From NCBI GenBank assembly GCA_963736335.1, contig CAVTOC010000006.1:650140-714139 (forward strand): DNA of 64,000 bases. Direction: 5' to 3'. Positions 1-12,529 of this stretch are shown in pieces. This DNA is from an uncultured Actinomycetes bacterium. Lineage in GTDB: Bacteria > Actinomycetota > UBA4738 > HRBIN12. The position numbers were made by a program, and so were the translations under genes. The stretch's first letter is position 1. The number at the start of each line of letters is the position of its first letter. The notes beneath the pieces were generated by a model, which saw only the letters and a list, made by a program, of their open reading frames with translations, did not search any database and was not told the origin of the DNA.

Positions 1-3000
1 GTTCCGTTGGAACCGACGAACACCTTGACGATCGCGCCGTTCGCCGACGTACGCAGCCGGAAGAGATCGATGTTCGTCCCGGCCGTCACGTTCACGCTCA
101 GGCTGGTGCACGCGCTCATGACCGGCGAGGCGAGATCCTTGTACGCCGACGCGCTCTGACTCGTCACCTGGGCCCGGGCACTCGGCGCTGTTGGACTGCC
201 GGTCGCGTTGTCGATCGTGAGGCGCGTGTTCGACGTCCAGTTCGAGAAGTTCCCGCTCGAGAAGTCGTCGGCGAAGATCGCCGAAGCGGCGGAGGTCACC
301 AGGATCGGAGCCGAGGTCACGCTCTTCGCGCTCGGATTCGCGACGGAGTCCACCGCATCCACGGTGTAGGTGTGCATCGTGCCCGGTGTGAGTCCGGGGT
401 CGGTGAACGTCGTCGAAGTGGTCGACCCGACCGGCGTGGAGCCGCCGTCACGGTACACGCGGTACGTGATCGGCGGAGACGCATCCGTGGACGCGGACCA
501 TGTGATCTGGATCGTGCCCACCGAGGGGCTGGTCCCGCTCGGTTGGCCAGGGACCGTCGGCGGGGTGGTGTCGGGCGCCTGGTTCTCACCCGGCGCCGTA
601 TCCACTCGCACGTTGTCGTAGTTGACGGTGAAGGTCTTCGCCGCCGTATCGCCGATCTGGACCCGCCCGATCCCCGTCGTACCCGTGTTCGTCGCCCAGG
701 CGTTCACGATCTTGACGCCGTCGCGATAGAGGTCCCACGTGGTGTTCGATCCGACCGTGCCGCAGAGTTCCACGCTGTGGAACCCCGTGCCCATCTGGAC
801 GCCCGAGCTGAACGACGTCGCCGCGAAGTCCGAACGGATCTGCAGCGTGCCGTTCGTTGCCACGAACACCTTGATGATCGCGCCGTTCGTGGCCGTGCGC
901 AGGCGGAACAGGTCGATGTTGCTCCCTGAGATCACATTGACGTTCAGGCTCGTGCATGCGGTCATGACAGGCGACGCCAGGTCCTTATAGGCGGACGCGC
1001 TCTGATTCGTCACCTGGGCCCGCGCGCTCGGCGCGACCGGAGACCCGGTCGAGTTGTCGATCGTGAGCCGCGTGTTGGACGTCCAATTCAAGAAGTCGCC
1101 GGCGGAGAAGTCGTCGGCGAAGATCGGCGGCGCAGCGCCGCTGCTCACCGTCGCCGTATCCGAGACGGGCGAGCCGGCCTCTGAGCCGTCGTTCGGCGTC
1201 ACCGTGACGACGATCACGTCGCCCGGATCGCCGTTGCCGGCGGCCGACAGGTCGAGCGAGTCGGTCGAGGCCGACGTCGTCGTGGTCCGCTTGAGCGTCC
1301 CGTTGACGGTCCACGCGTACGTGAACGACACCGCGTCGGTGTCGGCGTCGGTGCCGACGGCGGTCGCCTGGAGCACCGCGTTCGTCCCGGGCGTGTGACT
1401 GTCCAATGCGACGGTGGCGCTCGGAGCCGTGTTACCCACCGTCACGGGCGCCGACGTCACCGGCGAGGAGTTCGCGGTTCCATCGTTCGCGGTGACCCGA
1501 AGGCGGATCAGATCTCCCTTGTCGCCCCGGCCCGCGATGGACATGTCGAGGACGGCTGCCGTTGCACCGGCGATGTCTGTGCCGTTCCGCGTCCACTGGT
1601 AGCCCAGCGTGAGAGGGTTGCCGTCCGCGTCGTGGGCGGCGACCGTCGCGCTCAGCGTTGCGTTCGTCCCGGGCGATGACTGATCGATCACCACGGAATC
1701 GACGACGGGCGGGGTGTTCGCCGGCGGCGCACCGCTGAAGACCGCATAGCGCTGCTGGTTGACGCCCGTCACGATCGTGAAGCCGCCGCCGACGTAGAGC
1801 CGGTTCCCCTGGGCGATCATCGCCACGACCGCGATGTTGGTGTTGACGGTCGGCGTCCAGTCGGCCCGGAGCGCACCCGTGTTGGGGTTGAAGGCGGCGA
1901 GCCGGCCACGCGGTTGTCCCGACATGTTGTCGAAGTGGCCACCGGCGTAGACGACGCCTCCCATGTAGGCGACGTCGGTGACGTCACCGTCACCCTGGGC
2001 AAGCCAGAGCTGGGCACCGGTGTTGATATCGAACGCGACCACCTGGTTGCCGCCCGCGCCGGTTCCGACTCCCACGAACACCCGTCCGGGGCCCTGCGCG
2101 ATGCCCTGCGATGCGTCGCTCGGATGGCCGCTCCACGGGAGCATCGTGCCCGTCGTGGCGTCGAGCGCTGCGATGAAGTTGCTCGGAGCACCGCCGACCG
2201 TTGTGAAGTCCCCGACCACGATGATCCGGCCGTCCGGAGTGACAAGCATGTCGCGAGGCGACTGGTCGACGCTCGGATCCCACGTCGTGAGCGATCCGTT
2301 CGTCGCGTCGAAGGCCGCGAGTCGAAGGCGGGCCGTGTTCGATCCACCCTGACCTGCAACTGAGGTGAACTGACCCCCGACGTAGACGCGGTTTCCCAGC
2401 GTCACGATCGTGCGGACCAACGAACTCACCGTCGGGCTCCAGGAACGGACGGCGCCCGTGGTTGCGTCGATCGCCGCGATCCTGGTTCGGGTGAGCGTCG
2501 CGACGTGCTTGAACTGCCCACCCGCGTAGATCGTGGTTCCGTCGGGAGACGCGGCCAAGGCCTGGACGACACCGTCGGCGCCCGGGTCCCACGCCATCGG
2601 CTGGCCCGTGGTGGCATCGATCGCAGCAAGGTATTGGCGCGGGACGATCTCGCCGTTGTGTCCGAGGAGCTGCGTGAAATCGCCACCGATATAGACGACG
2701 TTTCCGACGCGGACCAATGCGTTGACCCGGCCATTGACCTGGAACGTGCTGTCGGGGACGGCCGACACGACGGCCGCGGAGACCACCGTTGCCGCGGAAA
2801 CCAGCGTGCCCGAGACGGTGCCGTCGTTCGGAGTGACCTCGACCGAGATCGCGTCGCCATCGTCGCCGTTCCCGGCGACGCTGAGGTCGAGGCTATCGGT
2901 CAGGGACGCCGTCGCAGCCGTGGTCTTCACGACGACGCCATTCACCTTCCACACGTACGTCGATGTCACCCCGTCCCCGTCCGCGTCGACAAGGGTGGCC

Positions 3001-6000
3001 GTCGCCGTAACCGTTTGATTGGTGCTCGGCGGCGCCGGACTGAGCACCACGGTCGCGATCGGCACGGAGTTCTGCACCGTGACAGCCGAAGACGTCACCG
3101 GCGTCGAATCGTTCACACCGTCGCTCGCCGTCACCCGCACACTGAGCTGGTCGCCCCGATCGCCATTGCCGACGGTCCCGAGGTTGAGCGTCGAGCCAGT
3201 GGCACCGCCGATCGGCGAGCCGTTCTTGAGCCATTGGTACGAGAGCGTGACCGCCTGGCCCTCCGGGTCGTGGCTGGTCACGGTGGCCGTGATCGTCTGG
3301 TTCGTGGTGGGGGCCGCGGGGTTCACCACGACGGAATCCACGACCGGTGGCGTGTTCGGCGGCGCACCGTGCACGGACGCCGTGCCGGAGTCGGTGAACG
3401 TCGCTCCCGGGATCGGGATGAACTGCCAGTCGTAGCTGGAAGGATGGAGCGTCAACTTCATCACGCCGAACGACACATTGTCCCTGACCTCGGTGTTCGG
3501 CTGGTTCTGCGTGAACGCCTGGTGGCTCTCGCCGCCGGTCCCGACCACGAACTCCTTGATGCCGTACGTCGAGTTGGCCACACCGGTCGCCGTCTGAGGG
3601 GCGAACCGCTCATACCCGTGCGCGTGCCCGTTCAGGACGATGTCGGCGCCGAAATCGTACAGAGCCTGCCAGATGTCCTGCATGAATGTGTTGTTGGCGT
3701 TGCTGCTGAACAGGGGCTTGTGCCACATCGCGATCACGTTCTTGTCAGCGTTGGCGGCAAGATCGGCTCGGAGCCACTGTTCTTGTGGAGAGCCAGCCTG
3801 GCATCCTCCGACCTGCGCACACTCGCTGTTCAACACGACGACGTGCCAGTGCGAGTCCACGTCATAGCTGTAGTAGCCGGTCGATGGGCTCCCCGCTGCC
3901 GCGCCGAAGTATCCGAAGTACCCTGCGGCGTTCGCCGTGTTGTACTCGTGGTTCCCGCTCACCGGACGCGTGCGAGCTAGGAACTGACCCCATGAGGCGC
4001 CGTAGCAGTTCTGGAACTCCGTGAGCGTTCCGTTCGGATACACGTTGTCCCCCAGCGTGAAGACCTGACCGGGGATCTGATCGACGAGCGCGGCGGTTGC
4101 CTCATCGGTGACGTTGGCGCAATCGGCGATGTCACCTGCGCCGACCAGGACGGGGTCGCCGGCGGTCGGCGTCGCGATGACTTCGTTCGACGCCGTCGAG
4201 GCGTTCGACGATTGATCGATGGCCGTGACAACGTAGTAGTAGTCCGTCCCGCCGGTGACGCCAGTGTCGGTGAAAGACGTTCCGCTCACGAGGGTTCCGC
4301 CGTTCACGGGGGTCCCGTTGACCGACACGCCGGGCGACGTCGCCCGATACACGTTATACCCGGCGAGGTCGGGCTCGGAGTTCGGGTTCCACGTCAAGGA
4401 CACCTGGCCCCCGCCCGCCATCGCGACCAGGCCTTGCGGCGGCGTGGGCGGTGAGGAGTCGGGGTTGAACGGCGCGCCGTTCACCCACGCCGGGGCGTTG
4501 ACGGCCGTGCCGTTGATGCCGGAGCCGGACGAGTCGGTGACGATCGAACCCGTGCCCTCGTTCATCCCCCACCGACCGATCAGCCCTTGGGCCGATGGGA
4601 TCTCGAGGTTGCGGCCTGCCTGGATCTGCGACTGCGTGCGTGCCACGTTCCAGATCCGAGCCTCATCGACCACGCCGGCGAAGAAGCCGTCGGCGACTCC
4701 TGTCGAATTCATCGCGGTGCCGATAGCGGCATGCTGGATCGAGTCGGAGCGGGGGAAGTTCCCGACGGCCAGGACGCCGTCGGCGTTCCCGTCCAGGTAG
4801 AGGTGCCATGCCGAGCCGTCGTAGGTCGCGGCGGCATGGTGCCACACGTTGGACGTGACGACCGTGTTGCCGAATATCGGGTGGTTCAAGCCGGGGGTCG
4901 GCTGACCCGCGCCCTCCTCGAAGTCGGCGACGAGCTTGCCCGTGGCGGAGTCGATACCCAGGAAGTAGTTCATATCGACGTTGGAGCCGTCGTTCTCGGA
5001 GCGCCCCTTCGTGAGCAGTGGGATCGCGCTCGGGACGCCGCCGCTCCCGGTGCTCGTTCCGACGCCCGCGCCGGTCCGCTTGAACCAGAGCTCGAGCGTG
5101 AACGTGGACGAATCGAGGCCGGGGGCCGCCCCGAACGTCACGTACTGGTTCGTCCCATTCAGTTGCAGGCCGGAGCTCGGCGCGGTAGGCGTCGCGCTCG
5201 CTTCGTTCGACGCGCCTGACGCGTTGTTCGACGTGTCGACGGCCGTGACGATGTAGTAGTAGGTCGTGCCGCCGATGACGCTACTGTCGGTCAGCGACGT
5301 GCCGGTCAGGAGGATCCCGCCGTTCAGGGGGAGGCCGGCAACCGGAACTCCTGGCGTCGTCGACCGATAGACGTTGTAGCCGGCGAGGTCGACCTCGCTG
5401 TTCGCGCTCCACGAGAGCCCCACGTTCCCGGCCCCAGGTGTCGCGACCAGGTTCTGCGGCGCGGCGGGAGCGGTGGTGTCGGAGCTGATGGGGAAGCCCG
5501 CGACCCAGGTGGGCCCGGCGGTAAGCGTGCCGGTGTTGCCGCCGCCGGATGCGTCGGCGGTGGTGGTACCGGATCCTTCGTTCATGTGCCAGAGACCGGC
5601 AAGGCCCGCCGTCGCGCCGATCTCGGTGTTCATCGTCGACTGGATCTGTCCCTGCGAGCGCGCGGTGCTCCAGATCCGCGCCTCGTCGATCTGGCCCTGG
5701 AAGAAGCCCGCGGCCACACCTGCGGTGGTGAGGGCCGAGCCGATGGCGGTCGCGGACGTCACCGCGGTGTTGGCCGGCGCGTTGATCGCGAGCGTCTTGT
5801 CGAGGTTGCCGTCGAGGTAGAGGTTCCACGTCGTGCCGTCGTAGGTGGCTGCGGCGTGGTGCCACACGTTCGAGGTGACGACCGTCGTGCCCGTCACGGG
5901 ATGGTTGAGACTCGGTGAAGCGCCGCTCTGGGCCTCCTCGAAGTCCGCGACCAACTGACCGGTCGTGGCGTCGATGCCGAAGAAGTAGTTGATGTCGGCC

Positions 6001-7322
6001 GCAGCGGTCTCGGCCTCGGCACGGCCTTTCGTGATGAGGGGGATCGCCGACGCGATGCCGCCCGTGCCGGTACTCGTCCCGACACCGGCTCCGGTCCGCT
6101 TGAACCAGAGCTCGACGGTGAACTGGGAGGATCGAAGCCCCGGAGAAGCTCCCATCGTGACGTACTGGCTGCTGCCGTTCAGCTGGATGGCTGAGTTGGT
6201 GACGACCTGCGGCGTCGCGGTGACCTCGTTCGAGGAAGCAGAACTGTTCCCGGAGGTGTCCACCGCGGTGACGACGTAGAAGTACGGGGTCCCGGGAGTC
6301 CCGGTCAGATCGGTATAGGTGGTCCCGACCTGCGGCGTCGCACCGTTCAGCGGCGTACCGCTCGTCGGCACGCCGGCGGACGTCGCCCGATACACGTTGT
6401 AGCCCGCCAGGTCCGCCTCGGTGTTCGCGCTCCACGACATGTTCACCGCGCCGGGCGACCCTCCTGCGGTCAGGTTCAGCGGAGCCGCTGGGGGCGTCGT
6501 GTCGAACGGAGCGCCGGCGACCCAGGTGGGCCCGGCGGTAAGCGTGCCGGTGTTGCCGCCGCCGGATGCGTCGGCGGTGGTGGTACCGGATCCTTCGTTC
6601 ATGTGCCAGAGACCGGCAAGGCCCGCCGTCGCGCCGATCTCGGTGTTCATCGTCGACTGGATCTGTCCCTGCGAGCGCGCGGTGCTCCAGATCCGCGCCT
6701 CGTCGATCTGGCCCTGGAAGAAGCCCGCGGCCACACCTGCGGTGGTGAGGGCCGAGCCGATGGCGGTCGCGGACGTCACCGCGGTGTTGGCCGGCGCGTT
6801 GATCGCGAGCGTCTTGTCGAGGTTGCCGTCGAGGTAGAGGTTCCACGTCGTGCCGTCGTAGGTGGCTGCGGCGTGGTGCCACACGTTCGAGGTGACGACC
6901 GTCGTGCCCGTCACGGGATGGTTGAGACTCGGTGAAGCGCCGCTCTGGGCCTCCTCGAAGTCCGCGACCAACTGACCGGTCGTGGCGTCGATGCCGAAGA
7001 AGTAGTTGATGTCGGCCGCAGCGGTCTCGGCCTCGGCACGGCCTTTCGTGATGAGGGGGATCGCCGACGCGATGCCGCCCGTGCCGGTACTCGTCCCGAC
7101 ACCGGCTCCGGTCCGCTTGAACCAGAGCTCGACGGTGAACTGGGAGGATCGAAGCCCCGGAGAAGCTCCCATCGTGACGTACTGGCTGCTGCCGTTCAGC
7201 TGGATGGCCTGGTTCCCCGCGGCGGATGCCGGCGATGAAGGCAGGATCACTGCCAGCAGTGCGGTGGACAGGAAGAAGGCGAGCAACCGAGCTCTCAAGG
7301 TTGTGGCAGACCGGGTCTTCAA
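1..7322 (-). CDS. Giant secreted multidomain protein; C-terminal end lies beyond the window (>2,440 aa). Order: signal peptide; 3 x (LamG-like + FN3); calcineurin-like metallophosphoesterase; Ig-like modules; beta-propeller; further LamG-like/FN3 modules
   Basis: Not in the supplied ORF track because it has no in-window stop. Manual minus-strand translation from TTG at 7322 (AAAGGGA 7 nt upstream) gives MKTRSATTLRARLLAFFLSTALLAVILPSSPASAAGNQAIQLNGSSQYVTMG... The same frame (first codon base = 2 mod 3) was spot-checked at 7322, 4565, 3728, 2051 and 371 and reads sensible, Arg-poor protein each time. I did not scan every codon for stops. Confidence 0.85.
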   Translation of the reverse strand, partial: MKTRSATTLRARLLAFFLSTALLAVILPSSPASAAGNQAIQLNGSSQYVTMGASPGLRSSQFTVELWFKRTGAGVGTSTGTGGIASAIPLITKGRAEAETAAADINYFFGIDATTGQLVADFEEAQSGASPSLNHPVTGTTVVTSNVWHHAAATYDGTTWNLYLDGNLDKTLAINAPANTAVTSATAIGSALTTAGVAAGFFQGQIDEARIWSTARSQGQIQSTMNTEIGATAGLAGLWHMNEGSGTTTADASGGGNTGTLTAGPTWVAGAPFDTTPPAAPLNLTAGGSPGAVNMSWSANTEADLAGYNVYRATSAGVPTSGTPLNGATPQVGTTYTDLTGTPGTPYFYVVTAVDTSGNSSASSNEVTATPQVVTNSAIQLNGSSQYVTMGASPGLRSSQFTVELWFKRTGAGVGTSTGTGGIASAIPLITKGRAEAETAAADINYFFGIDATTGQLVADFEEAQSGASPSLNHPVTGTTVVTSNVWHHAAATYDGTTWNLYLDGNLDKTLAINAPANTAVTSATAIGSALTTAGVAAGFFQGQIDEARIWSTARSQGQIQSTMNTEIGATAGLAGLWHMNEGSGTTTADASGGGNTGTLTAGPTWVAGFPISSDTTAPAAPQNLVATPGAGNVGLSWSANSEVDLAGYNVYRSTTPGVPVAGLPLNGGILLTGTSLTDSSVIGGTTYYYIVTAVDTSNNASGASNEASATPTAPSSGLQLNGTNQYVTFGAAPGLDSSTFTLELWFKRTGAGVGTSTGSGGVPSAIPLLTKGRSENDGSNVDMNYFLGIDSATGKLVADFEEGAGQPTPGLNHPIFGNTVVTSNVWHHAAATYDGSAWHLYLDGNADGVLAVGNFPRSDSIQHAAIGTAMNSTGVADGFFAGVVDEARIWNVARTQSQIQAGRNLEIPSAQGLIGRWGMNEGTGSIVTDSSGSGINGTAVNAPAWVNGAPFNPDSSPPTPPQGLVAMAGGGQVSLTWNPNSEPDLAGYNVYRATSPGVSVNGTPVNGGTLVSGTSFTDTGVTGGTDYYYVVTAIDQSSNASTASNEVIATPTAGDPVLVGAGDIADCANVTDEATAALVDQIPGQVFTLGDNVYPNGTLTEFQNCYGASWGQFLARTRPVSGNHEYNTANAAGYFGYFGAAAGSPSTGYYSYDVDSHWHVVVLNSECAQVGGCQAGSPQEQWLRADLAANADKNVIAMWHKPLFSSNANNTFMQDIWQALYDFGADIVLNGHAHGYERFAPQTATGVANSTYGIKEFVVGTGGESHQAFTQNQPNTEVRDNVSFGVMKLTLHPSSYDWQFIPIPGATFTDSGTASVHGAPPNTPPVVDSVVVNPAAPTTNQTITATVTSHDPEGQAVTLSYQWLKNGSPIGGATGSTLNLGTVGNGDRGDQLSVRVTASDGVNDSTPVTSSAVTVQNSVPIATVVLSPAPPSTNQTVTATATLVDADGDGVTSTYVWKVNGVVVKTTAATASLTDSLDLSVAGNGDDGDAISVEVTPNDGTVSGTLVSAATVVSAAVVSAVPDSTFQVNGRVNALVRVGNVVYIGGDFTQLLGHNGEIVPRQYLAAIDATTGQPMAWDPGADGVVQALAASPDGTTIYAGGQFKHVATLTRTRIAAIDATTGAVRSWSPTVSSLVRTIVTLGNRVYVGGQFTSVAGQGGSNTARLRLAAFDATNGSLTTWDPSVDQSPRDMLVTPDGRIIVVGDFTTVGGAPSNFIAALDATTGTMLPWSGHPSDASQGIAQGPGRVFVGVGTGAGGNQVVAFDINTGAQLWLAQGDGDVTDVAYMGGVVYAGGHFDNMSGQPRGRLAAFNPNTGALRADWTPTVNTNIAVVAMIAQGNRLYVGGGFTIVTGVNQQRYAVFSGAPPANTPPVVDSVVIDQSSPGTNATLSATVAAHDADGNPLTLGYQWTRNGTDIAGATAAVLDMSIAGRGDKGDLIRLRVTANDGTANSSPVTSAPVTVGNTAPSATVALDSHTPGTNAVLQATAVGTDADTDAVSFTYAWTVNGTLKRTTTTSASTDSLDLSAAGNGDPGDVIVVTVTPNDGSEAGSPVSDTATVSSGAAPPIFADDFSAGDFLNWTSNTRLTIDNSTGSPVAPSARAQVTNQSASAYKDLASPVMTACTSLNVNVISGSNIDLFRLRTATNGAIIKVFVATNGTLQIRSDFAATSFSSGVQMGTGFHSVELCGTVGSNTTWDLYRDGVKIVNAWATNTGTTGIGRVQIGDTAAKTFTVNYDNVRVDTAPGENQAPDTTPPTVPGQPSGTSPSVGTIQITWSASTDASPPITYRVYRDGGSTPVGSTTSTTFTDPGLTPGTMHTYTVDAVDSVANPSAKSVTSAPILVTSAASAIFADDFSSGNFSNWTSNTRLTIDNATGSPTAPSARAQVTSQSASAYKDLASPVMSACTSLSVNVTAGTNIDLFRLRTSANGAIVKVFVGSNG
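848..1137 (-). repeat. Diverged module repeat (about 847-bp period) shared with 1-290
   Basis: Bases 1-24 (gttccgttggaaccgacgaacacc) align with 848-871 (gtgccgttcgttgccacgaacacc), and similarity continues for about 290 bp. Both encode FADDFSxGxFxNWTSNTRLTIDNxTGSPxAPSARAQVTxQSASAYKDLASPVMxACTSL.VNV..G.NIDLFRLRT..NGAI.KVFV..NG. Confidence 0.7.
1730..2760 (-). other. Beta-propeller-like repeat region inside the giant protein
   Basis: About 8 reiterations of a roughly 45-aa unit of the form V(Y/F)xGGxFt...r..lAA(I/F)DAtTG....W.P (for example VYIGGDFTQLLGHNGEIVPRQYLAAIDATTGQPMAWDP; VYVGGQFTSVAG...LRLAAFDATNGSLTTWDP). Confidence 0.6.
3400..4160 (-). other. Calcineurin-like metallophosphoesterase domain inside the giant protein
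   Basis: Ordered motifs in the manual translation: GDIADC, GDNVYPNG, GNHEYN, MWHKPLFSS, NGHAHGYERF. Confidence 0.8.
4480..5180 (-). repeat. Diverged third LamG-like module of the same gene
   Basis: Translation ...GLQLNGTNQYVTFGAAPGLDSSTFTLELWFKRTGAGVGTSTGSGG...VWHHAAATYDGSAWHLYLDG...FFAGVVDEARIWNVARTQSQIQ... parallels modules 1 and 2 but carries many substitutions at DNA level. Confidence 0.7.
5500..6191 (-). repeat. Exact intragenic repeat, copy A (LamG-like module 2)
   Basis: See copy B. The 692 bp appear 100% identical, while the flanking FN3-coding segments (6192-6516 versus 5230-5499) are clearly diverged. Confidence 0.85.
6517..7208 (-). repeat. Exact intragenic repeat, copy B (LamG-like module 1 of the giant protein)
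   Basis: Offset of exactly 1017 bp to copy A. ORF-track peptides in several frames are identical between copies (5549-5731 = 6566-6748; 5586-5918 = 6603-6935; 5894-6085 = 6911-7102). Boundaries were found by base comparison: identity starts at 5500/6517 and ends at 6191/7208. Confidence 0.85.
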
Positions 7323-7566
7323 GGTCGATCCCTTTCGTCGGGGCCCCTCAGGGTCTTGTGCTCGTGCGCATGTGGAGGTCGAGCGGGGTGGACGAGCCCA
7401 TGCTTCTTTGCCGTTGACACGCGTCGGAGAGATGCCGAACGATCGGACATGTGGGTGGATCCTCCCGGGGGGAAGTCGTACGGGCTGGAGCCGTCCGAGC
7501 GGAGCCCCTTCGTCTTCGTCGTCGATGGCCACCGCGGGTGACGTAGTCCACCCGAGTGGTCATCCG

Positions 7567-7589
7567 TAGTTAGGAAGGTTGAGTTTCCA
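7567..7589. promoter_or_regulatory. Possible spacer-variant of the ROK-locus operator, in the leader of the giant gene
   Basis: The minus strand reads TGGAAACTCAACCTTCCTAACTAC. It shares GGAAAC and TTCCTAACTA with the 21639-21654 site (AGGAAACTTTCCTAACTA), but the half-sites are 7 nt apart rather than 1 nt. Confidence 0.25.
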
Positions 7590-7656
7590 TCACCCGGGAC
7601 GACGACGCATCGGGCTTTGGTCGTAGGCCACAGGTCGGTGCCGAGGTGGACGCCGA

Positions 7657-7686
7657 GAAGCTCGGGGCATCGGAGCCCCGAGCTTC
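7657..7686 (-). terminator. Stem-loop downstream of the 84-aa ORF
   Basis: GAAGCTCGGGG (7657-7667) pairs perfectly with CCCCGAGCTTC (7676-7686). It lies 28 nt past the stop at 7714. There is no U-tract. Confidence 0.45.
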
Positions 7687-7713
7687 GTGGTTCGACGTCT
7701 GGTGGTTGAGCGG

Positions 7714-7968
7714 CTAGATGCGCGCCCGCCCCACGCACGTCTCACCGGTCGACGGGTTCGTCGCCTTCGCCACGAACTTGTCCACACCGGTCGAATCGCT
7801 GGGACGGCGGCGGACCGTGAACGAACCGCTCGCCCCCTGCGTCACGCGCGTGCCGGTGAAGATCCGCGAGCTGTTCTGCCTGATCTGGACGTACCAGGAC
7901 TGACCGCTCACGTTCGAGTCGACCTCGAACTCCAGCTCCAGGCTGCTGTTGTCCGGCTCGAGCTTCAT
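7714..7968 (-). CDS. Small hypothetical protein, possibly an N-terminally truncated fragment
   Basis: The 84-aa ORF MKLEPDNSSLELEFEVDSNVSGQSWYVQIRQNSSRIFTGTRVTQGASGSFTVRRRPSDSTGVDKFVAKATNPSTGETCVGRARI has a non-shadow composition. The in-frame upstream peptide ...RAQSEWK continues to a TGA with no alternative start and no signal peptide. Confidence 0.5.
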   Translation of the reverse strand: MKLEPDNSSLELEFEVDSNVSGQSWYVQIRQNSSRIFTGTRVTQGASGSFTVRRRPSDSTGVDKFVAKATNPSTGETCVGRARI

Positions 7969-8113
7969 CTTCCACTCGCTCTGCGCCCGCAGCTGCCTCC
8001 GGCGTCGAGCATGTCGGGGACGCTCTCAGCATGCGGCCAAGACTGGGAAAAGGGACCGATAACCCCCTCGGCGTTCTCGGCCGCGTTCATGAGCAACCGG
8101 TACGCTGCTCGGC

Positions 8114-8208
8114 GGAGGCGTCAGGGTTCCTGGTGGGCCCCGCGGTCTTCAACACCGTTGTGGGGGCGCAAGCTCCCAGGCGGGTTCGATTCCCGTCCGC
8201 CTCCGCCA
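8114..8208 (+). tRNA. selC: tRNA-Sec (anticodon UCA)
   Basis: Folded by hand; 95 nt including the encoded CCA. Acceptor GGAGGCG/CGCCTCC (7 bp plus U.C at the 8th position). 6-bp D stem GGGTTC/GGGCCC. Anticodon stem GCGGT/ACCGT with loop CTTCAAC (U33, UCA, A37). 7-bp variable arm TGGGGGC/GCTCCCA closed by GCAA. T arm GCGGG-TTCGATT-CCCGT. Discriminator G. Confidence 0.85.
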
Positions 8209-8344
8209 ACGTTCAGTCATACCCGGGTTGACCTGCGCGGGGCTCTTCTCGGCTTGGCCTTGCCATCAGCGGTGTCGTAGAGCTCGAGGACGCCTCCTCA
8301 TCCAACGACGCCTTGTGAACAGCACACTCCATGCTGACTCCGGC

Positions 8345-9214
8345 TCAGGCGAACGGCACGGCGAAGTCGCAGTAGGGGGCGCTCGTCTCAGTGACCGGCT
8401 CGCTCGCGAGGTAGGTGATCCGCACGCCGAGATCCTCGGGCTTGAGGACCAGACGTTCAGGGTCGATGCCGTGCTCGGCCGCCCACGCGTGCAATGCCTC
8501 CGACGCGAGCTGCCACTGCACTGCAGGGTTCCCTCCCGGTCCAGCTGGTAGCGCGTCGTTCGGTATCGCGACGTACGCCTCGCGATGTGCGGGTTCGGTC
8601 CGCAAACTCAACTCCGGGTAATGCGATGCCAGCGCCTTCGCGTCCGACTCCGGGACCGGCTTGCACATCTCAACGGGGCCGTCGCTGTCGGCGCTTACCT
8701 CACCCCAGTAGATGGTGAACATCGCGCCTTCTCGCCCGTTCATCTTCGGTAGCGGTCGCTCGCGCAGGATCGCGATGAATTCCTTGCCGAGCGCCCATGC
8801 GCCCTGTTCGTCGACACTGCGCTTCAGGCAGAGCAAGCTCCGCTCGGGCATCTCTCGCGTAGCGACCTCGTACATGACAGACCTCTTTCCGCTCAGTCGG
8901 TTGACGAGGTAGTCGGCGAGCGCGCGGCGCGCGTCGTGGGCGGACTCGACCTCCCGCCAATGCGCCGCTATCCGCTCTGCGACAACAGCCGGATCGCATA
9001 CGAGCAGTTCCTTGATCGCCGCAAGCGGCAACCCAAGCTGACGCAACATCGCGACGAGGCGCGCTGTTTCGAGCTGCGCGGCGTCGTAGTAGCGATAGCC
9101 GGAGGCTTCATCGACACGCGCGGGAACCAGCACCCCAAGTTCGTCGTAGAGACGCAGCGCCTTAACCGACAGACGTGAGCGCCTTGCGAACTCGCCGATG
9201 CTGACTTCTTCCAC
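8345..9214 (-). CDS. MerR-family transcriptional regulator with a GyrI-like effector-binding C-terminal domain
   Basis: N-terminus MEEVSIGEFARRSRLSVKALRLYDELGVLVPARVDEASGYRYYDAAQLETARLVAMLRQLGLPLAAIKELL is a MerR HTH. It is followed by a roughly 160-aa effector-type domain. Confidence 0.85.
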   Translation of the reverse strand: MEEVSIGEFARRSRLSVKALRLYDELGVLVPARVDEASGYRYYDAAQLETARLVAMLRQLGLPLAAIKELLVCDPAVVAERIAAHWREVESAHDARRALADYLVNRLSGKRSVMYEVATREMPERSLLCLKRSVDEQGAWALGKEFIAILRERPLPKMNGREGAMFTIYWGEVSADSDGPVEMCKPVPESDAKALASHYPELSLRTEPAHREAYVAIPNDALPAGPGGNPAVQWQLASEALHAWAAEHGIDPERLVLKPEDLGVRITYLASEPVTETSAPYCDFAVPFA

Positions 9215-9259
9215 GCGTCATACTCCCCCGTCATCGAGCCGAACGGCTCGACACATCGA

Positions 9260-9565
9260 GTGTGCGGCCTCCCCAAGGGGGAGAGTCAAGTTCACATCCC
9301 CGTCCGCCTCCGATGGGATGAGATCGTGGCGCAGAGCGTCGCGTGGGAGCTCGGGGGCGACGCCGGCGAGGCGGTGCGCGAGCACGAGAGGGCCGTGCTC
9401 GAGGCGGGCGGCGTGGCGCTTCGCTACGGCCAGTTCTACGGACCGGGGACCTACTTCGAGGACGAGGAGCCATCCCCGCCGCGCATCCACGTGGATGAGG
9501 CGGCCCGCCGAACCGCGCCGGCGCTCGGTGCCGCGCCGAGGGTGATCATCATCGCCGAAGCGTGA
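9260..9565 (+). pseudogene. C-terminal remnant of an NAD(P)-binding SDR/NmrA-like epimerase-type protein
   Basis: Only the tail is present: ...GVALRYGQFYGPGTYFEDEEPSPPRIHVDEAARRTAPALGAAPRVIIIAEA. There is no Rossmann GxxGxxG part. Recognisable sequence begins right at the tRNA-like repeat. Confidence 0.45.
9289..9312 (+). repeat. Degenerate copy of the tRNA-Sec 3' half (att-like direct repeat)
   Basis: GTTCACATCCCCGTCCGCCTCCG here versus GTTCGATTCCCGTCCGCCTCCG at 8186-8205. There is a 14-nt exact core CCCGTCCGCCTCCG, in the same orientation. Confidence 0.55.
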
Positions 9566-9900
9566 TCGACGCGACGGTGGGTAGGCTGGAGACCATGCAA
9601 TCGCAGCTCCAGGAGATCGCCGACCGGATCGACTCGACCGTCGAGGAGCTGCTGGCGTTCCTCGACTCCCCCTCCGGCCGAAGGCTGCGCAAGCGCCTGG
9701 CCACCGGGCTGATCATCTCCGTGCCGCTGATCATGCGGATCCCCTGGCTCCGCCGAACACCGCTCGGCAGGCTGATCGAGGTGGGAGGCGGAGCGGCACT
9801 CGTGATGAAACTCGCCGAGCTGATCCGCGACTGGGAACGCGACCACCCAGACGGCGCGCAACCCCAGGTGATCGACGTTCCCCCCGTGCCTCCCGCCTGA
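9562..9900 (+). CDS. Hypothetical protein (start possibly ATG at 9595)
   Basis: 112-aa ORF with a plausible composition (MQSQLQEIADRIDSTVEELLAFLDSPSGRRLRKRLATGLIISVPLIM...). It has one hydrophobic segment. No family recognised. Confidence 0.5.
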   Translation: MIDATVGRLETMQSQLQEIADRIDSTVEELLAFLDSPSGRRLRKRLATGLIISVPLIMRIPWLRRTPLGRLIEVGGGAALVMKLAELIRDWERDHPDGAQPQVIDVPPVPPA

Positions 9901-9906
9901 GCTCGC

Positions 9907-11490
9907 TCAGGTCGACGAGCGCGCTCGCCGTCCCGTCGCGTGGATCACCTCTCGGGCCGCGCGCAGCCCCGTCTCGACGCCGCCGTTGAGATAGCCCTGG
10001 CTGTACGTGGACGTGTGCTCACCTGCGAAGTGCACGTTGCCCTGCGGGAGCCCCATGTAGCCGAAGAAGCTCGTCCACTGCCCGGGCAGGAACGCCGCGT
10101 AGGAGCCCTTCACCCACGGGTCGTCCACCCATGAGTCCAGCCACGAGCGCCCGTTGTACGAGTCGCGTATCCCGGGGAGGTACGTGTCGAGGAACGCCAG
10201 CGCATCGTCGACCACCCCCGGGGGTGCCGACGCGTGGGGCTCGTCGACCGGATAGCCGGCCCCGGTCTTCCCGCCCGAGAAGATGGTCAACAGCCCGCCG
10301 GGCCCCGGCTCCGCCAGGGCGCTGTCCCAGCTGTCGGTCTTGGGAACGTCCAGGTCGAACAGGCCGTTCCACCCGAACGTCGGGAACCGGTCCTCGAACT
10401 GCAGGAGCACCTTCGCGTTCGTGCCCATCCCGAGCTCGTCGATCGCTCGCATCCGATCGTGGTCGAACCCCGCTCCCGTCAGGTCGACGTCGCGGAGCGT
10501 GGTGAACGGCAGGCAGAGGACGACGTGGTCGGCGACCACGGGTGACGCCACGCCTCCGAAGTCGAGCTCGTACGTTCCGTCGGAGCGTTGCCGCATCGCC
10601 TCGAGCGGCGACTCGAGGTGAAGCGCGCCTGAAGGCAGCAGGTCGGCCAGCATGTTCGGGACCTGATCGTTCCCACCCCGGATGTGGTAGCGCTCGTCGG
10701 CGGGTCCACCCGGGTACGGCGTGATGTACGTGTCGAGCAGCGTGATCGCCGACGTGTCCTCGGGGTCGATGCCCCAGAACCCGGTGAGACCGATATCCAT
10801 CGACAGGCCGAGCAGCGACCCGCTCCCGCCCGGAACGTTGTCGTCCATCCACTCGCGCATCGTCATCTGGTCGAACGCTTTCGCCGCCGGTCCCGCTTGC
10901 CCCCAGCGATAGGGGCCGACCTTCTTCGCGTCACGCATGAGCCGCCGGATCACCACGTCGAAGTGCGCGTGCACCGCGTGACGATCCCGCTGTTCGCCCT
11001 CGAGCACCAGGAGACCGGTCACGTCGCTTTCGTCCGAGTAGGCCGGGAACAGGTCGTCCAGCTGGAGACCGAGCGCGGCGACGAGCCGGCGGAGCTGCAC
11101 GTGCCGCGTATCGACGAACTCCCCTCCGTGCTCGGCCACCTGGCCGTCAGCGAACGACCGAGCGGACCAGCACCGGCCCCCGACGCGGTCGCGGGACTCG
11201 TAGAGGTCGGCCGGGATGCCGTGCTGCTGCAGTTTGTAGGCACAGGACACCCCGGCGAGCCCGGCGCCCACCACGACGACGCGCGGATCGTGGGCCCCGC
11301 GGCGACGCGGACGCGCCAGCGCGGCGAGCGGCCGTGCAACGGCCAGCCCCGCTCCCAGGACGCCGGCACCCTGCAGCACCTGACGCCGGCTGAGCTGCAG
11401 GCGCTGGAGCTGGATCGCCTCGTCCAACGACAGGGGCCGATCCTCCGGAAGCGACGCGTAAACGTCGGCCAGCTCGCGCATCGCCCGCAT
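9907..11490 (-). CDS. Tat-exported flavin-containing amine oxidase family protein
   Basis: Twin-arginine signal LSRRQVLQGAGVLGAGLAVARPLAALA, followed by the dinucleotide fold VVVVGAGLAGVSCAYKLQQHGIPADLYESRDRVGGR. The Arg-rich 104-aa upstream extension in the track (to 11802) overlaps the neighbouring gene and was discarded in favour of ATG at 11490. Confidence 0.85.
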   Translation of the reverse strand: MRAMRELADVYASLPEDRPLSLDEAIQLQRLQLSRRQVLQGAGVLGAGLAVARPLAALARPRRRGAHDPRVVVVGAGLAGVSCAYKLQQHGIPADLYESRDRVGGRCWSARSFADGQVAEHGGEFVDTRHVQLRRLVAALGLQLDDLFPAYSDESDVTGLLVLEGEQRDRHAVHAHFDVVIRRLMRDAKKVGPYRWGQAGPAAKAFDQMTMREWMDDNVPGGSGSLLGLSMDIGLTGFWGIDPEDTSAITLLDTYITPYPGGPADERYHIRGGNDQVPNMLADLLPSGALHLESPLEAMRQRSDGTYELDFGGVASPVVADHVVLCLPFTTLRDVDLTGAGFDHDRMRAIDELGMGTNAKVLLQFEDRFPTFGWNGLFDLDVPKTDSWDSALAEPGPGGLLTIFSGGKTGAGYPVDEPHASAPPGVVDDALAFLDTYLPGIRDSYNGRSWLDSWVDDPWVKGSYAAFLPGQWTSFFGYMGLPQGNVHFAGEHTSTYSQGYLNGGVETGLRAAREVIHATGRRARSST

Positions 11491-11536
11491 CAAGGGTGTC
11501 CGTCGTCCCACTCTGCCGCCTCCCGATGTCCGGCCC

Positions 11537-12529
11537 TCAGACCGGCTCGTCCTCGAGCTCGAGCACGGGATCCATCTCGTCCGGTTCGAGCGTGCCCACC
11601 GTTTCCTTGTGGATGGCGCGACGGTACAGCAGGAGCGTCGGAAGCTGTAGCGCGGCCGACGCGACGAGCGCGAGGGGGACCCCGATGCCCCCCGCGATCG
11701 CGCCGAGCACCGGCCCCCCCGCCGTCTGCCCCACCGCCGTCTGCCCCACCGCGTCGGCCTGACCGCCGACCGAGTTGATCGTCGCGCGGGTCTTCGGATC
11801 AAGCCCCTGGTTGATCCATACCCGGAACACCGGATCGCGCACGCTCCGGAGCGCGCCGACCACCCACATCGCCGCGAGCGCCACCCAGAACTGCCCCGTC
11901 AGCGCGAACGCGATGACACTAAGGACCAGGAAGACGTCGATCGCGGCCAGGATCCGCGCGACGGGGACGTGACCTTCCCTCCTCGGGCATCACGATCCAG
12001 AGCGCTGCAGCCAGCAGCAGCTGACCGGCGCCCGCCACGAGGATCGGCAACGCGAGGTTCACGGTCGCGAGCGCCACGCCCGCGACGATCCCCGCCAACG
12101 CGGCCGCATGCCAGAACTGATCGTCCCGGAGGTACAGCGGTCGAGCGGCAGTCTCCCCGACCTCGTCCGTGAGCCACGCGACGTCGGCGCCGCTCTCGAA
12201 CGTCGCGAAGCTCCCCCAGATCAGTTGCGAGGCAGCTGCCATCCCGAAGCTGTGCGAGAACCCGAGGAGCAGGAACCCGATGCCCCCCCGCCCAGGCCGA
12301 TGACGATGGACGTGCGCCGACTGATGGTGTCGGCCACGATACCGGTAGGCGTTTCGAACAAGAGGTACGAGCCCTCCAAGACCGTCCCCAACAGCACCAG
12401 CTGGAACGGACCGAGGCCCAATCGCAGGATGAGGAACACGCTGAAGATCACGCCCATCATCCGCGAGAAGAACCCGTTGATCGCCATATACGCGAGGAAC
12501 ACGGGGACGGCGCGCATCCGTCGGTTCAT
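11537..12529 (-). pseudogene. MFS transporter split over three frames (two 1-nt indels)
   Basis: Piece 1 (12529 to about 12295): MNRRMRAVPVFLAYMAINGFFSRMMGVIFSVFLILRLGLGPFQLVLLGTVLEGSYLLFETPTGIVADTISRRTSIVIGLG. Piece 2: GIGFLLLGFSHSFGMAAASQLIWGSFATFESG...LWIVMPEEG. Piece 3 (to 11537): HVPVARILAAIDVFLVLSVIAFALTGQFWVALAAMWVVGA...LELEDEPV. The junctions fall at a run of 7 C (about 12291-12297) and at about 11972. Confidence 0.75.

Follow-up and report, generated by a model that had tools for sequence, protein, structure and literature searches.

Duplication of the selC 3′ end points to a decayed insertion at the selenocysteine tRNA gene of an uncultured actinobacterium

We analysed a 64,000-nt stretch of DNA from an uncultured Actinomycetes bacterium (contig CAVTOC010000006.1, positions 650,140 to 714,139; hereafter the window), in which selC, the gene for selenocysteine tRNA (tRNA-Sec), is followed about 1.1 kb downstream by a second copy of its own 3′ end. 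Comparison with related loci, designated here by L numbers, makes it very probable that the site is an insertion scar, in which the original 3′ end of selC was displaced to the far side of an insert. The locus is a relic, of the ordinary kind that gene transfer leaves at tRNA hotspots, and not an active element, since an integrase is absent and the distal arm is gone.

The 3′ end of selC is repeated downstream of the gene

ARAGORN finds a single tRNA in the window, the tRNA-Sec already located in a preliminary description made from the sequence of the stretch, and the Rfam tRNA-Sec model scores it at 74.8 bits (gathering score, 47). The gene is identical over all 95 of its 95 nt to selC of L001, L032 and L050. 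Its last 14 nt before CCA, CCCGTCCGCCTCCG, occur in the window in two exact plus-strand copies, the proximal and the distal core (Table 1). Dinucleotide-preserving shuffles contain on average 0.02 copies of this 14-mer per window, and none of the 100 shuffles contains two or more, in line with the statement of the preliminary description that the repeat is unlikely to arise by chance; nor is the 14-mer a common repeat. Near-matches to the GC-rich core (up to 2 mismatches) are common. A fuzzy search returned the displaced cores of L013 and L025 together with a chance match inside merR, the regulator gene carried by the insert.

The preliminary description had aligned 22 to 23 nt at 9289–9312, of which the 14-nt exact core stands, while the longer alignment holds only in part. 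Specifically, GTTCAC at 9290–9295 is the reverse complement of GTGAAC, which lies beside the −35 box (TTGACT) of merR, and GTGAAC together with TTGACT is also found with merR in other genomes, where no tRNA gene lies close by (L074–L076, L154 and L155). Therefore, the tRNA-derived part of the distal repeat is only 14 nt long, or at most 17 nt if it starts at 9296 (ATC plus the core, with one mismatch). At the proximal core, identity stops exactly at the discriminator G, and it does likewise in an integrase-bearing provirus (L070/L071).

The selC 3′ end, GGTTCGATTCCCGTCCGCCTCCG, is conserved across many Actinomycetota, with the CCA encoded in some lineages only, and the tRNA sequence itself is therefore not unusual. 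Non-standard pairs (U8 opposite C, marked in the Rfam alignment) are found at the base of the acceptor stem in selC of the window and in all of the actinobacterial selC loci (L004–L064).

Table 1. Features of the window at and around selC (ORF, open reading frame; aa, amino acids)
Feature	Position	Strand	Basis or remark
Giant ORF of >2,519 codons, running off the window	1–7559	−	
p84, 5′-truncated small gene	7714–8005 (ORF 7714–8025)	−	Homology to L001 137-aa protein
selC (tRNA-Sec), intact, CCA encoded	8114–8208	+	ARAGORN, anticodon TCA; Rfam RF01852
Proximal 14-nt core (attL-like)	8192–8205	+	T-stem 3′ strand, acceptor-stem 3′ strand and discriminator base
Incoming proximal flank	8206–8249	+	Common to window and L001; 8-mer TGACCTGC at 8229–8236
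IS630-family transposase scrap, VLELYDTADGKAKP	8250–8291	−	Translation; longer L001 version
3′ untranslated tail of merR unit	8298–8344	−	Homology boundary with copies in other contexts
merR-family regulator gene, 289 aa, insert cargo	8345–9214	−	Pfam MerR_1, MerR
merR leader and promoter	9215–9295	−	−35 box TTGACT = reverse complement of 9284–9289
Distal 14-nt core (attR-like), very probably the displaced original selC 3′ end	9299–9312	+	Exact match
Former selC downstream flank, 14 nt, ATGGGATGAGATCG	9313–9326	+	Homology to relatives' selC flank
SDR / NAD(P)H-binding gene remnant	9324–9565 (ORF 9260–9565)	+	Residues 114–193 of 193-aa gene
p112, small conserved gene, 112 aa, right-hand anchor of the variable site	9595–9900	+	
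Amine oxidase gene, Tat (twin-arginine translocation) signal	9907–11802	−	Pfam Amino_oxidase, 1e-48

Relatives retain empty sites and the former selC flank

Relatives were collected by scanning a single genome of each species for 23 nt from the 5′ half of selC. The scan gave 61 stretches, about 20 of which contain a selC identical to that of the window at 91 or more of its 95 nt. Near relatives keep the order p84 (minus strand), selC, p112, amine oxidase gene, with a variable interval between selC and p112; in particular, the order from selC to the amine oxidase gene is conserved in L050, L062, L038, L035, L018, L056, L014 and L001. There is nothing between selC and p112 in L050, L062, L038 and L035, where p112 starts 29–104 nt past selC. 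L018 has an intact SDR gene that begins 34 nt past selC, the two genes standing in close succession with no insert between them, and L056 has selC, a DinB-family gene and an intact 193-aa SDR gene. The interval has other content in L014, L007, L034 and L026. Thus, the insertion is absent from L050, L062, L038, L035, L018 and L056 and an unoccupied site exists; the preliminary description had proposed to look for an empty site with an intact SDR gene directly past selC. Among the syntenic selC loci recovered, merR at selC is confined to the window and L001, and L001 is the only one with both merR and the distal copy, indicating that the arrangement is not ancestral synteny.

The DNA past the distal copy has a counterpart at intact selC genes. 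The intact selC of L056, L034, L014 and L025 is followed by CG(A/T)GGAGAGA(T/A)CGG and a hairpin-forming stretch, the old-type flank CGWGGAGAGAWCGG lying directly after the gene. In the window, the 14 nt past the distal core, ATGGGATGAGATCG, are homologous to CGAGGAGAGATCG past intact selC in the same four loci, and also to the flank past the distal copy in L001 and L013. Furthermore, the distal core itself aligns with the genuine selC 3′ end of L056 and L034. On this homology, the distal copy is very probably the displaced original 3′ end of selC, and the decayed insertion scar proposed in the preliminary description is borne out by the old flank that follows it.

The closest relatives, L056 and L001, have flanking genes 93–95% identical to those of the window, and together they reveal the order before insertion. 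The distal fragment of L001, GTTCACATCCCCGT--GCCTCCG, is that of the window minus 2 nt, and is followed by CTGGGGTGAGATCGGAGAGCCCGGTGGGGCACCCCGATCC and then by the DinB gene. L001 8951–9727 is collinear with L056 4985–5053 and 5121–5832, which comprise the selC end, the flank and DinB, at 82–88% identity. This collinearity, together with the 14 nt of old flank left in the window, indicates that the pre-insertion order was like that of L056, namely selC, old flank, DinB, SDR, p112. The insertion is very probably older than the split between the window and L001, having taken place in their common ancestor.

The insert consists of a short flank, a transposase scrap and merR

The surviving insert (8206–9298, about 1.1 kb) starts right past the discriminator base of selC and is made up of a short flank, the remains of an IS630-family transposase gene, and merR with its promoter. 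The MerR regulator had been reported in the preliminary description as the sole content of the interval; the regulator is confirmed, and the transposase scrap has to be added to it. The proximal flank common to the window and L001 extends 28–44 nt past selC. By hand count, 28 nt at its start share about 79% identity with the flank of selC in L050 (L050 6433–6460 versus window 8206–8232); the L050 flank may be left over from an earlier element or may be an ancestral flank. The transposase scrap is non-functional and is recognised solely through a match to a Rhodococcus plasmid transposase; NCBIfam gave no match to it. Specifically, the scrap in L001 (7107–7364) is longer and internally deleted, joining two distant but collinear parts of the transposase, and matches residues 67–84 and 176–203 of the Rhodococcus protein (HTH_32 and DDE_3 domains; E = 1e-6 and 7e-10).

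The MerR protein has an N-terminal MerR helix-turn-helix and a dimerisation helix, with domain matches to PF13411 (MerR_1, 1.4e-16), PF00376 (MerR, 5e-12) and, weakly, PF09278, and its C-terminal part has no Pfam domain match. The best matches among solved structures in the PDB are EcmrR, BrlR and BmrR, which cover only residues 4–133; these N-terminal matches and the length of 289 aa would fit a regulator with the putative GyrI-like effector domain (BmrR/EcmrR type) that the preliminary description implied. The merR leader and promoter are invariant across copies in nine contexts. A perfect dyad, CTCCCC-AAG-GGGGAG (9269–9283), lies directly beside the −35 box, both being read from the sequence. 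This is where a MerR-type operator would be expected, and we infer the function of the dyad and of the −35 box from the MerR paradigm. The GC content of the insert (0.644 versus 0.684 for the window) and the GC content at third codon positions (GC3) of merR (0.78 versus 0.87–0.93 in neighbouring genes) differ little from their surroundings, and composition is weakly informative.

The merR gene occurs in many other places. Its product has thousands of close homologues, 85–99% identical, in soil metagenomes and metagenome-assembled genomes, some of the sources being given as Acidimicrobiales. An exact look-up of the MerR protein of the window in the assembly index gave no record. The 88 other merR loci lie in at least 44 unrelated contexts and none is adjacent to selC; some adjoin IS66, ISL3 or DDE_3 transposases or integrases. 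In all 88, homology to the window ends at 8298–8350 on one side (at 8298–8301 in L003, L065, L073–L075 and L115) and at 9289–9296 on the other. These contexts and the lower GC3 indicate that merR is foreign to the selC site. In L003 (7814–8949), L065 (7815–8949), L101 (1793–2913) and L118 (2495–3589), merR (window 8298–9294) is contained in a unit of about 1.13 kb that ends in terminal inverted repeats of 22–32 nt (GTGCCGTGTCAGGCAACGTT...) flanked by TA. Judged by these ends, the unit in the four loci appears to be an IS630-type non-autonomous passenger cassette, a nature that would fit the occurrence of merR in 44 or more genomic contexts. In the window, the inverted-repeat consensus does not occur even with up to 3 mismatches allowed. 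Transposition of the cassette was considered as the source of the duplicated selC end and rejected: IS630-type transposition duplicates TA and not a tRNA end, and the window copy lacks the inverted repeats.

Integrase-bearing proviruses and a second islet use the same selC end

The IMG/VR provirus IMGVR_UViG_3300033168_000020 (L070/L071) contains selC, an adjacent PF00589 integrase, and both attL and attR, a 25-nt repeat of the same selC end being located 37.8 kb from selC. In L072 (IMGVR_UViG_3300028485_000003), a tyrosine integrase related to that of L071 (35% identity) lies beside the same selC sequence. The 8-mer TGACCTGC links these elements with the window. It is positioned 24 nt past selC in the window and 10–17 nt past selC in L013 and L071; L013, L025 and L070 also have it ahead of their distal copies, at a distance of 34–51 nt, and it lies near the selC-derived core of L072 too. 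With a background frequency of 3.9e-5 per nt, about 0.0015 occurrences are expected in 40 nt, and there are 3 in the whole window. We regard TGACCTGC as a candidate arm-type integrase binding site.

A second scar is seen in L013 (JALYMB010000398.1), where selC and a degenerate, displaced selC 3′ fragment are separated by a 1.8-kb insert that is independent and has no integrase. The fragment starts within 1–2 nt of the same T-loop position as in the window and is followed by the same old flank. The L013 islet carries ORFs that, named from their sequences only, are alpha/beta hydrolase-like and methyltransferase-like, and has a 17-nt inverted repeat, GGAACAGTGTAAGAACC, near both ends. A scan of viral contigs with this repeat gave 10 matches, which may plausibly be due to chance given a length of 17 nt, one ambiguous base and a large collection.

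The provirus and L072 at the same selC end, the shared TGACCTGC and the recurrence of the joint in L013 lead us to lean, by a modest degree, towards site-specific integration at selC by a tyrosine integrase, followed by decay; we infer the involvement of the integrase from these parallels. An intact tRNA gene with no difference from that of relatives requires, whatever the agent, that a selC 3′ end came in with the foreign DNA; possible sources are the attachment site of an integrative element and the donor chromosome's own selC. Very probably, foreign DNA entered the 3′ end of selC in the ancestor of the window and L001, supplying a new 3′ end and its own downstream flank. The tRNA gene stayed intact, and the old 3′ end (14–17 nt) with the old flank moved to the far side of the insert. 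According to the integrase model, the agent would be a tyrosine integrase encoded by a larger element with an attachment site that mimics the selC 3′ end, an element of the same kind as the integrase-bearing selC provirus. Internal deletions would then have stripped the integrase and most of the cargo, leaving a non-mobile islet resembling a cis-mobilizable element (CIME). Later, a deletion in the window ran from 14 nt past the displaced tRNA end, across DinB, into SDR codon 113; other late losses are the 5′ end of p84 in the window, and the SDR gene and 2 core nt in L001. The putative excision junctions are GTTCACATC-CCCGTCCGCCTCCG-CCAACGTTCAG for attP, and selC, the core and ATGGGATGAG for the restored attB.

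Alternative explanations

Several observations weigh against integrase-mediated integration. The merR promoter unit, cut 6 nt past the −35 box, abuts the core with 3 nt between them, so that, with the arm missing, the integrase model needs a later deletion that ended exactly at the core. L050, which has no merR, possesses the similar 28-nt selC flank (about 79%), and the flank could thus be chromosomal and not element-derived. The DNA upstream of selC combines, in mosaic fashion, alleles resembling those of L050 and those of L056, indicating that homologous exchange is active at the locus. As noted in the preliminary description, the window has no integrase, a tblastn search with three tyrosine-integrase queries finding nothing (best E = 0.48), and none was found by tblastn in the relatives' 8-kb selC blocks. 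Furthermore, the attL junction CCGCCTCCGCCAACGTTCAGTCA has 0 matches in a JGI metagenome scan, and the reconstructed attP CATCCCCGTCCGCCTCCGCCAACG and the core plus CCAACG have 0 matches in viral contigs. Homology-facilitated illegitimate recombination, which needs no integrase, is a less likely but appreciable possibility. Chromosomal DNA from a related, L050-like donor, in which this flank, a copy of IS630 and a merR unit acquired by transposition followed selC, would have been joined at a homologous end in or upstream of selC and at an illegitimate end in the recipient's T loop near a GTTC microhomology, leaving the recipient's last 14–17 nt and flank downstream of the import. A single event of this kind would account for the truncated merR promoter unit abutting the core, and it accords with the L050-like proximal flank, the allelic mosaic upstream of selC and the negative integrase searches of the window and the relatives' selC blocks. 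The cargo, too, is transposon-derived and not island-like, with an IS630-type terminal-inverted-repeat cassette in relatives and an IS630 scrap beside merR. However, the independent L013 joint lies no more than 1–2 nt from the same T-loop position, which is unexpected for random joints; TGACCTGC occupies an arm-like position in the proximal flank and is common to integrase-bearing selC elements; and the bases between GTTC and the core fit neither parent cleanly.

The exchange could also have run in the opposite direction, although we consider this improbable. Here selC, the flank, the IS630 scrap and merR would be resident, and the DinB–SDR segment, with the 3′ end and flank of a donor selC, would have been imported from an L056-like lineage, with p112 or the amine oxidase gene as the place of the homologous crossover and the illegitimate joint lying beside the merR promoter. 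Such an import would give the same final structure, inter-lineage homologous exchange is visible, and the L050 flank resembles the proximal flank; but merR is found at selC only in the window and L001, against at least 44 contexts elsewhere, DinB/SDR–p112 beside selC is more widespread (L056, L018 and L034), and an illegitimate joint exactly in the T loop, recurring in L013, would still be needed. There is likewise little probability that the selC flank of this clade acts as a platform for cassette accretion, very small integrase-less units of 1–2 kb, each with one or two cargo genes, being stacked there in trans by a selC-specific integrase encoded elsewhere. Examples would be the merR unit of the window and the hydrolase and methyltransferase unit of L013, and it is similarly doubtful that the integrase came from the provirus family that shares TGACCTGC; the units would then be satellite-like att-only cassettes rather than random wreckage of larger islands, which we also think unlikely. 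Hardly credible is the view that no insertion occurred and that the repeat arose by chance, belongs to the regulatory region of merR or reflects conserved ancestral synteny. It is true that GTTCAC beside the repeat is merR promoter sequence and that near-matches to the GC-rich core (up to 2 mismatches) abound, but 0.02 occurrences of the exact 14-mer are expected per window, the bases past its distal copy correspond by homology to the DNA past the true selC in relatives, merR copies elsewhere lack the 14-mer, and insert-free sites exist. The 14-mer statistics, the flank homology and the other merR copies refute a repeat by chance, ancestral synteny and a role of the distal copy in regulation.

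Deletions have eroded the genes on both sides of the scar

On the left side, the small ORF across selC, p84, had been described as probably N-terminally truncated, and this is the case: in BLASTP it is 89% identical to residues 48–137 of its 137-aa homologue in L001. In relatives, the homologue is a secreted-looking protein of 137 aa with a signal-like N-terminus (MKKR...). The window lacks 170–185 bp that are present in L001, L056 and L050, with a junction at about 8003–8005, and this deletion took the first 47 codons of p84, the ribosome-binding site and the upstream region. The GC3 of p84 is 0.89–0.93, and the gene is probably a pseudogene.

On the right side, window 9324–9565 matches residues 114–192 of the intact 193-aa NAD(P)H-binding protein of L056 at 84% identity. 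The SDR-like ORF is thus a fragment, as suspected, and not a complete small protein family; it lacks the N-terminal Rossmann part, and the upstream DinB gene is also deleted. The right-side deletion removed about 1.2 kb (L056 ~5017–6232), comprising the remaining flank, DinB and 113 SDR codons, and a TCG microhomology can be read at the flank/SDR junction. The remnant itself is upheld; the preliminary description had the distal repeat coincide with its breakpoint, but 14 nt of old flank lie between the two. DinB is missing as well. L001 instead lacks about 0.6 kb with nearly the entire SDR gene, and its core is 2 nt shorter. The flanking deletions are later than the insertion and lineage-specific. 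Pfam gave no matches to the SDR remnant, p112 or p84. Annotation should list the SDR remnant and the ORF of 84 aa as pseudogenes, and merR as mobile cargo of recent acquisition.

Farther to the left, the giant ORF at 1–7559 contains near-identical tandem repeats of about 1,017 bp, with Laminin_G_3 and fibronectin type III domains near the N-terminus, and its product is probably a large surface protein. An Rfam ar35 match at 7525–7692 scored 24.8 bits against a gathering score of 45 and was taken as chance.

Comparison with known systems

The scar resembles tRNA-associated islands and islets, including those at enterobacterial selC (AGI-3, E. coli), in having a tRNA 3′ end as target, selC as the gene concerned, and a direct repeat at the far end, as well as in its absence from close relatives and perhaps in its slightly deviant composition. 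The direct repeats of such islands are typically 16–20 bp long, compared with 14 nt in the window, and integrase and other mobility genes are frequent in islands but not obligatory (PMC2704930), the insert in the window having no integrase. With a size of 1.1 kb and a single intact gene it is an islet (<10 kb), and it differs from islands further in its regulator cargo and the lack of an integrase. The host also differs from that of the enterobacterial islands, being an uncultured soil actinobacterial lineage (Acidimicrobiales in some sources). The locus shows selC, a classic enterobacterial hotspot, to be a hotspot in this lineage as well.

In the literature on integrative elements, a CIME is an element that has kept its att sites and lost its recombination genes (PMC5704250). 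Similar to a CIME, the islet has two copies of the attachment core and no recombinase or transfer genes, and its site has accumulated other decayed inserts (the DinB/SDR segment, L013 and L034). It differs in having the candidate arm motif on the selC side alone, with the merR promoter in place of the distal arm, and for this islet descent from an integrative and conjugative or an integrative and mobilizable element, like mobilisation in cis, is putative only.

The relatives' merR unit, with its terminal inverted repeats and TA flanks typical of IS630, invites comparison with mobile insertion cassettes, which are passenger-carrying, non-autonomous elements derived from insertion sequences. The window copy has neither inverted repeat, and transposition leaves the duplicated tRNA end unexplained. 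Homology-facilitated illegitimate recombination is a concept from natural-transformation studies; one homologous anchor and one microhomology joint would yield the observed structure, but the concept predicts neither the recurrent T-loop joint nor the shared TGACCTGC.

Tyrosine integrases that act on tRNA 3′ ends are known from temperate phages and integrative elements of actinobacteria, to which the selC provirus IMGVR_UViG_3300033168_000020 can be compared. The provirus differs from the scar in its length of 37.8 kb and its integrase beside selC, the window having no phage or integrase genes. It has in common with the window the selC core, the end of identity at the discriminator base, and TGACCTGC in the flank, a shared motif through which the scar is linked with a family of selC proviruses that carry an integrase. 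Compared with these systems, the locus is unusual only in its very small size and in the recurrence of integrase-less selC inserts in the clade, and opens no new question. It is a clean, well-resolved case of a known process, in which the unoccupied site, the occupied site, the displaced end with its old flank, and later independent deletions can all be seen.

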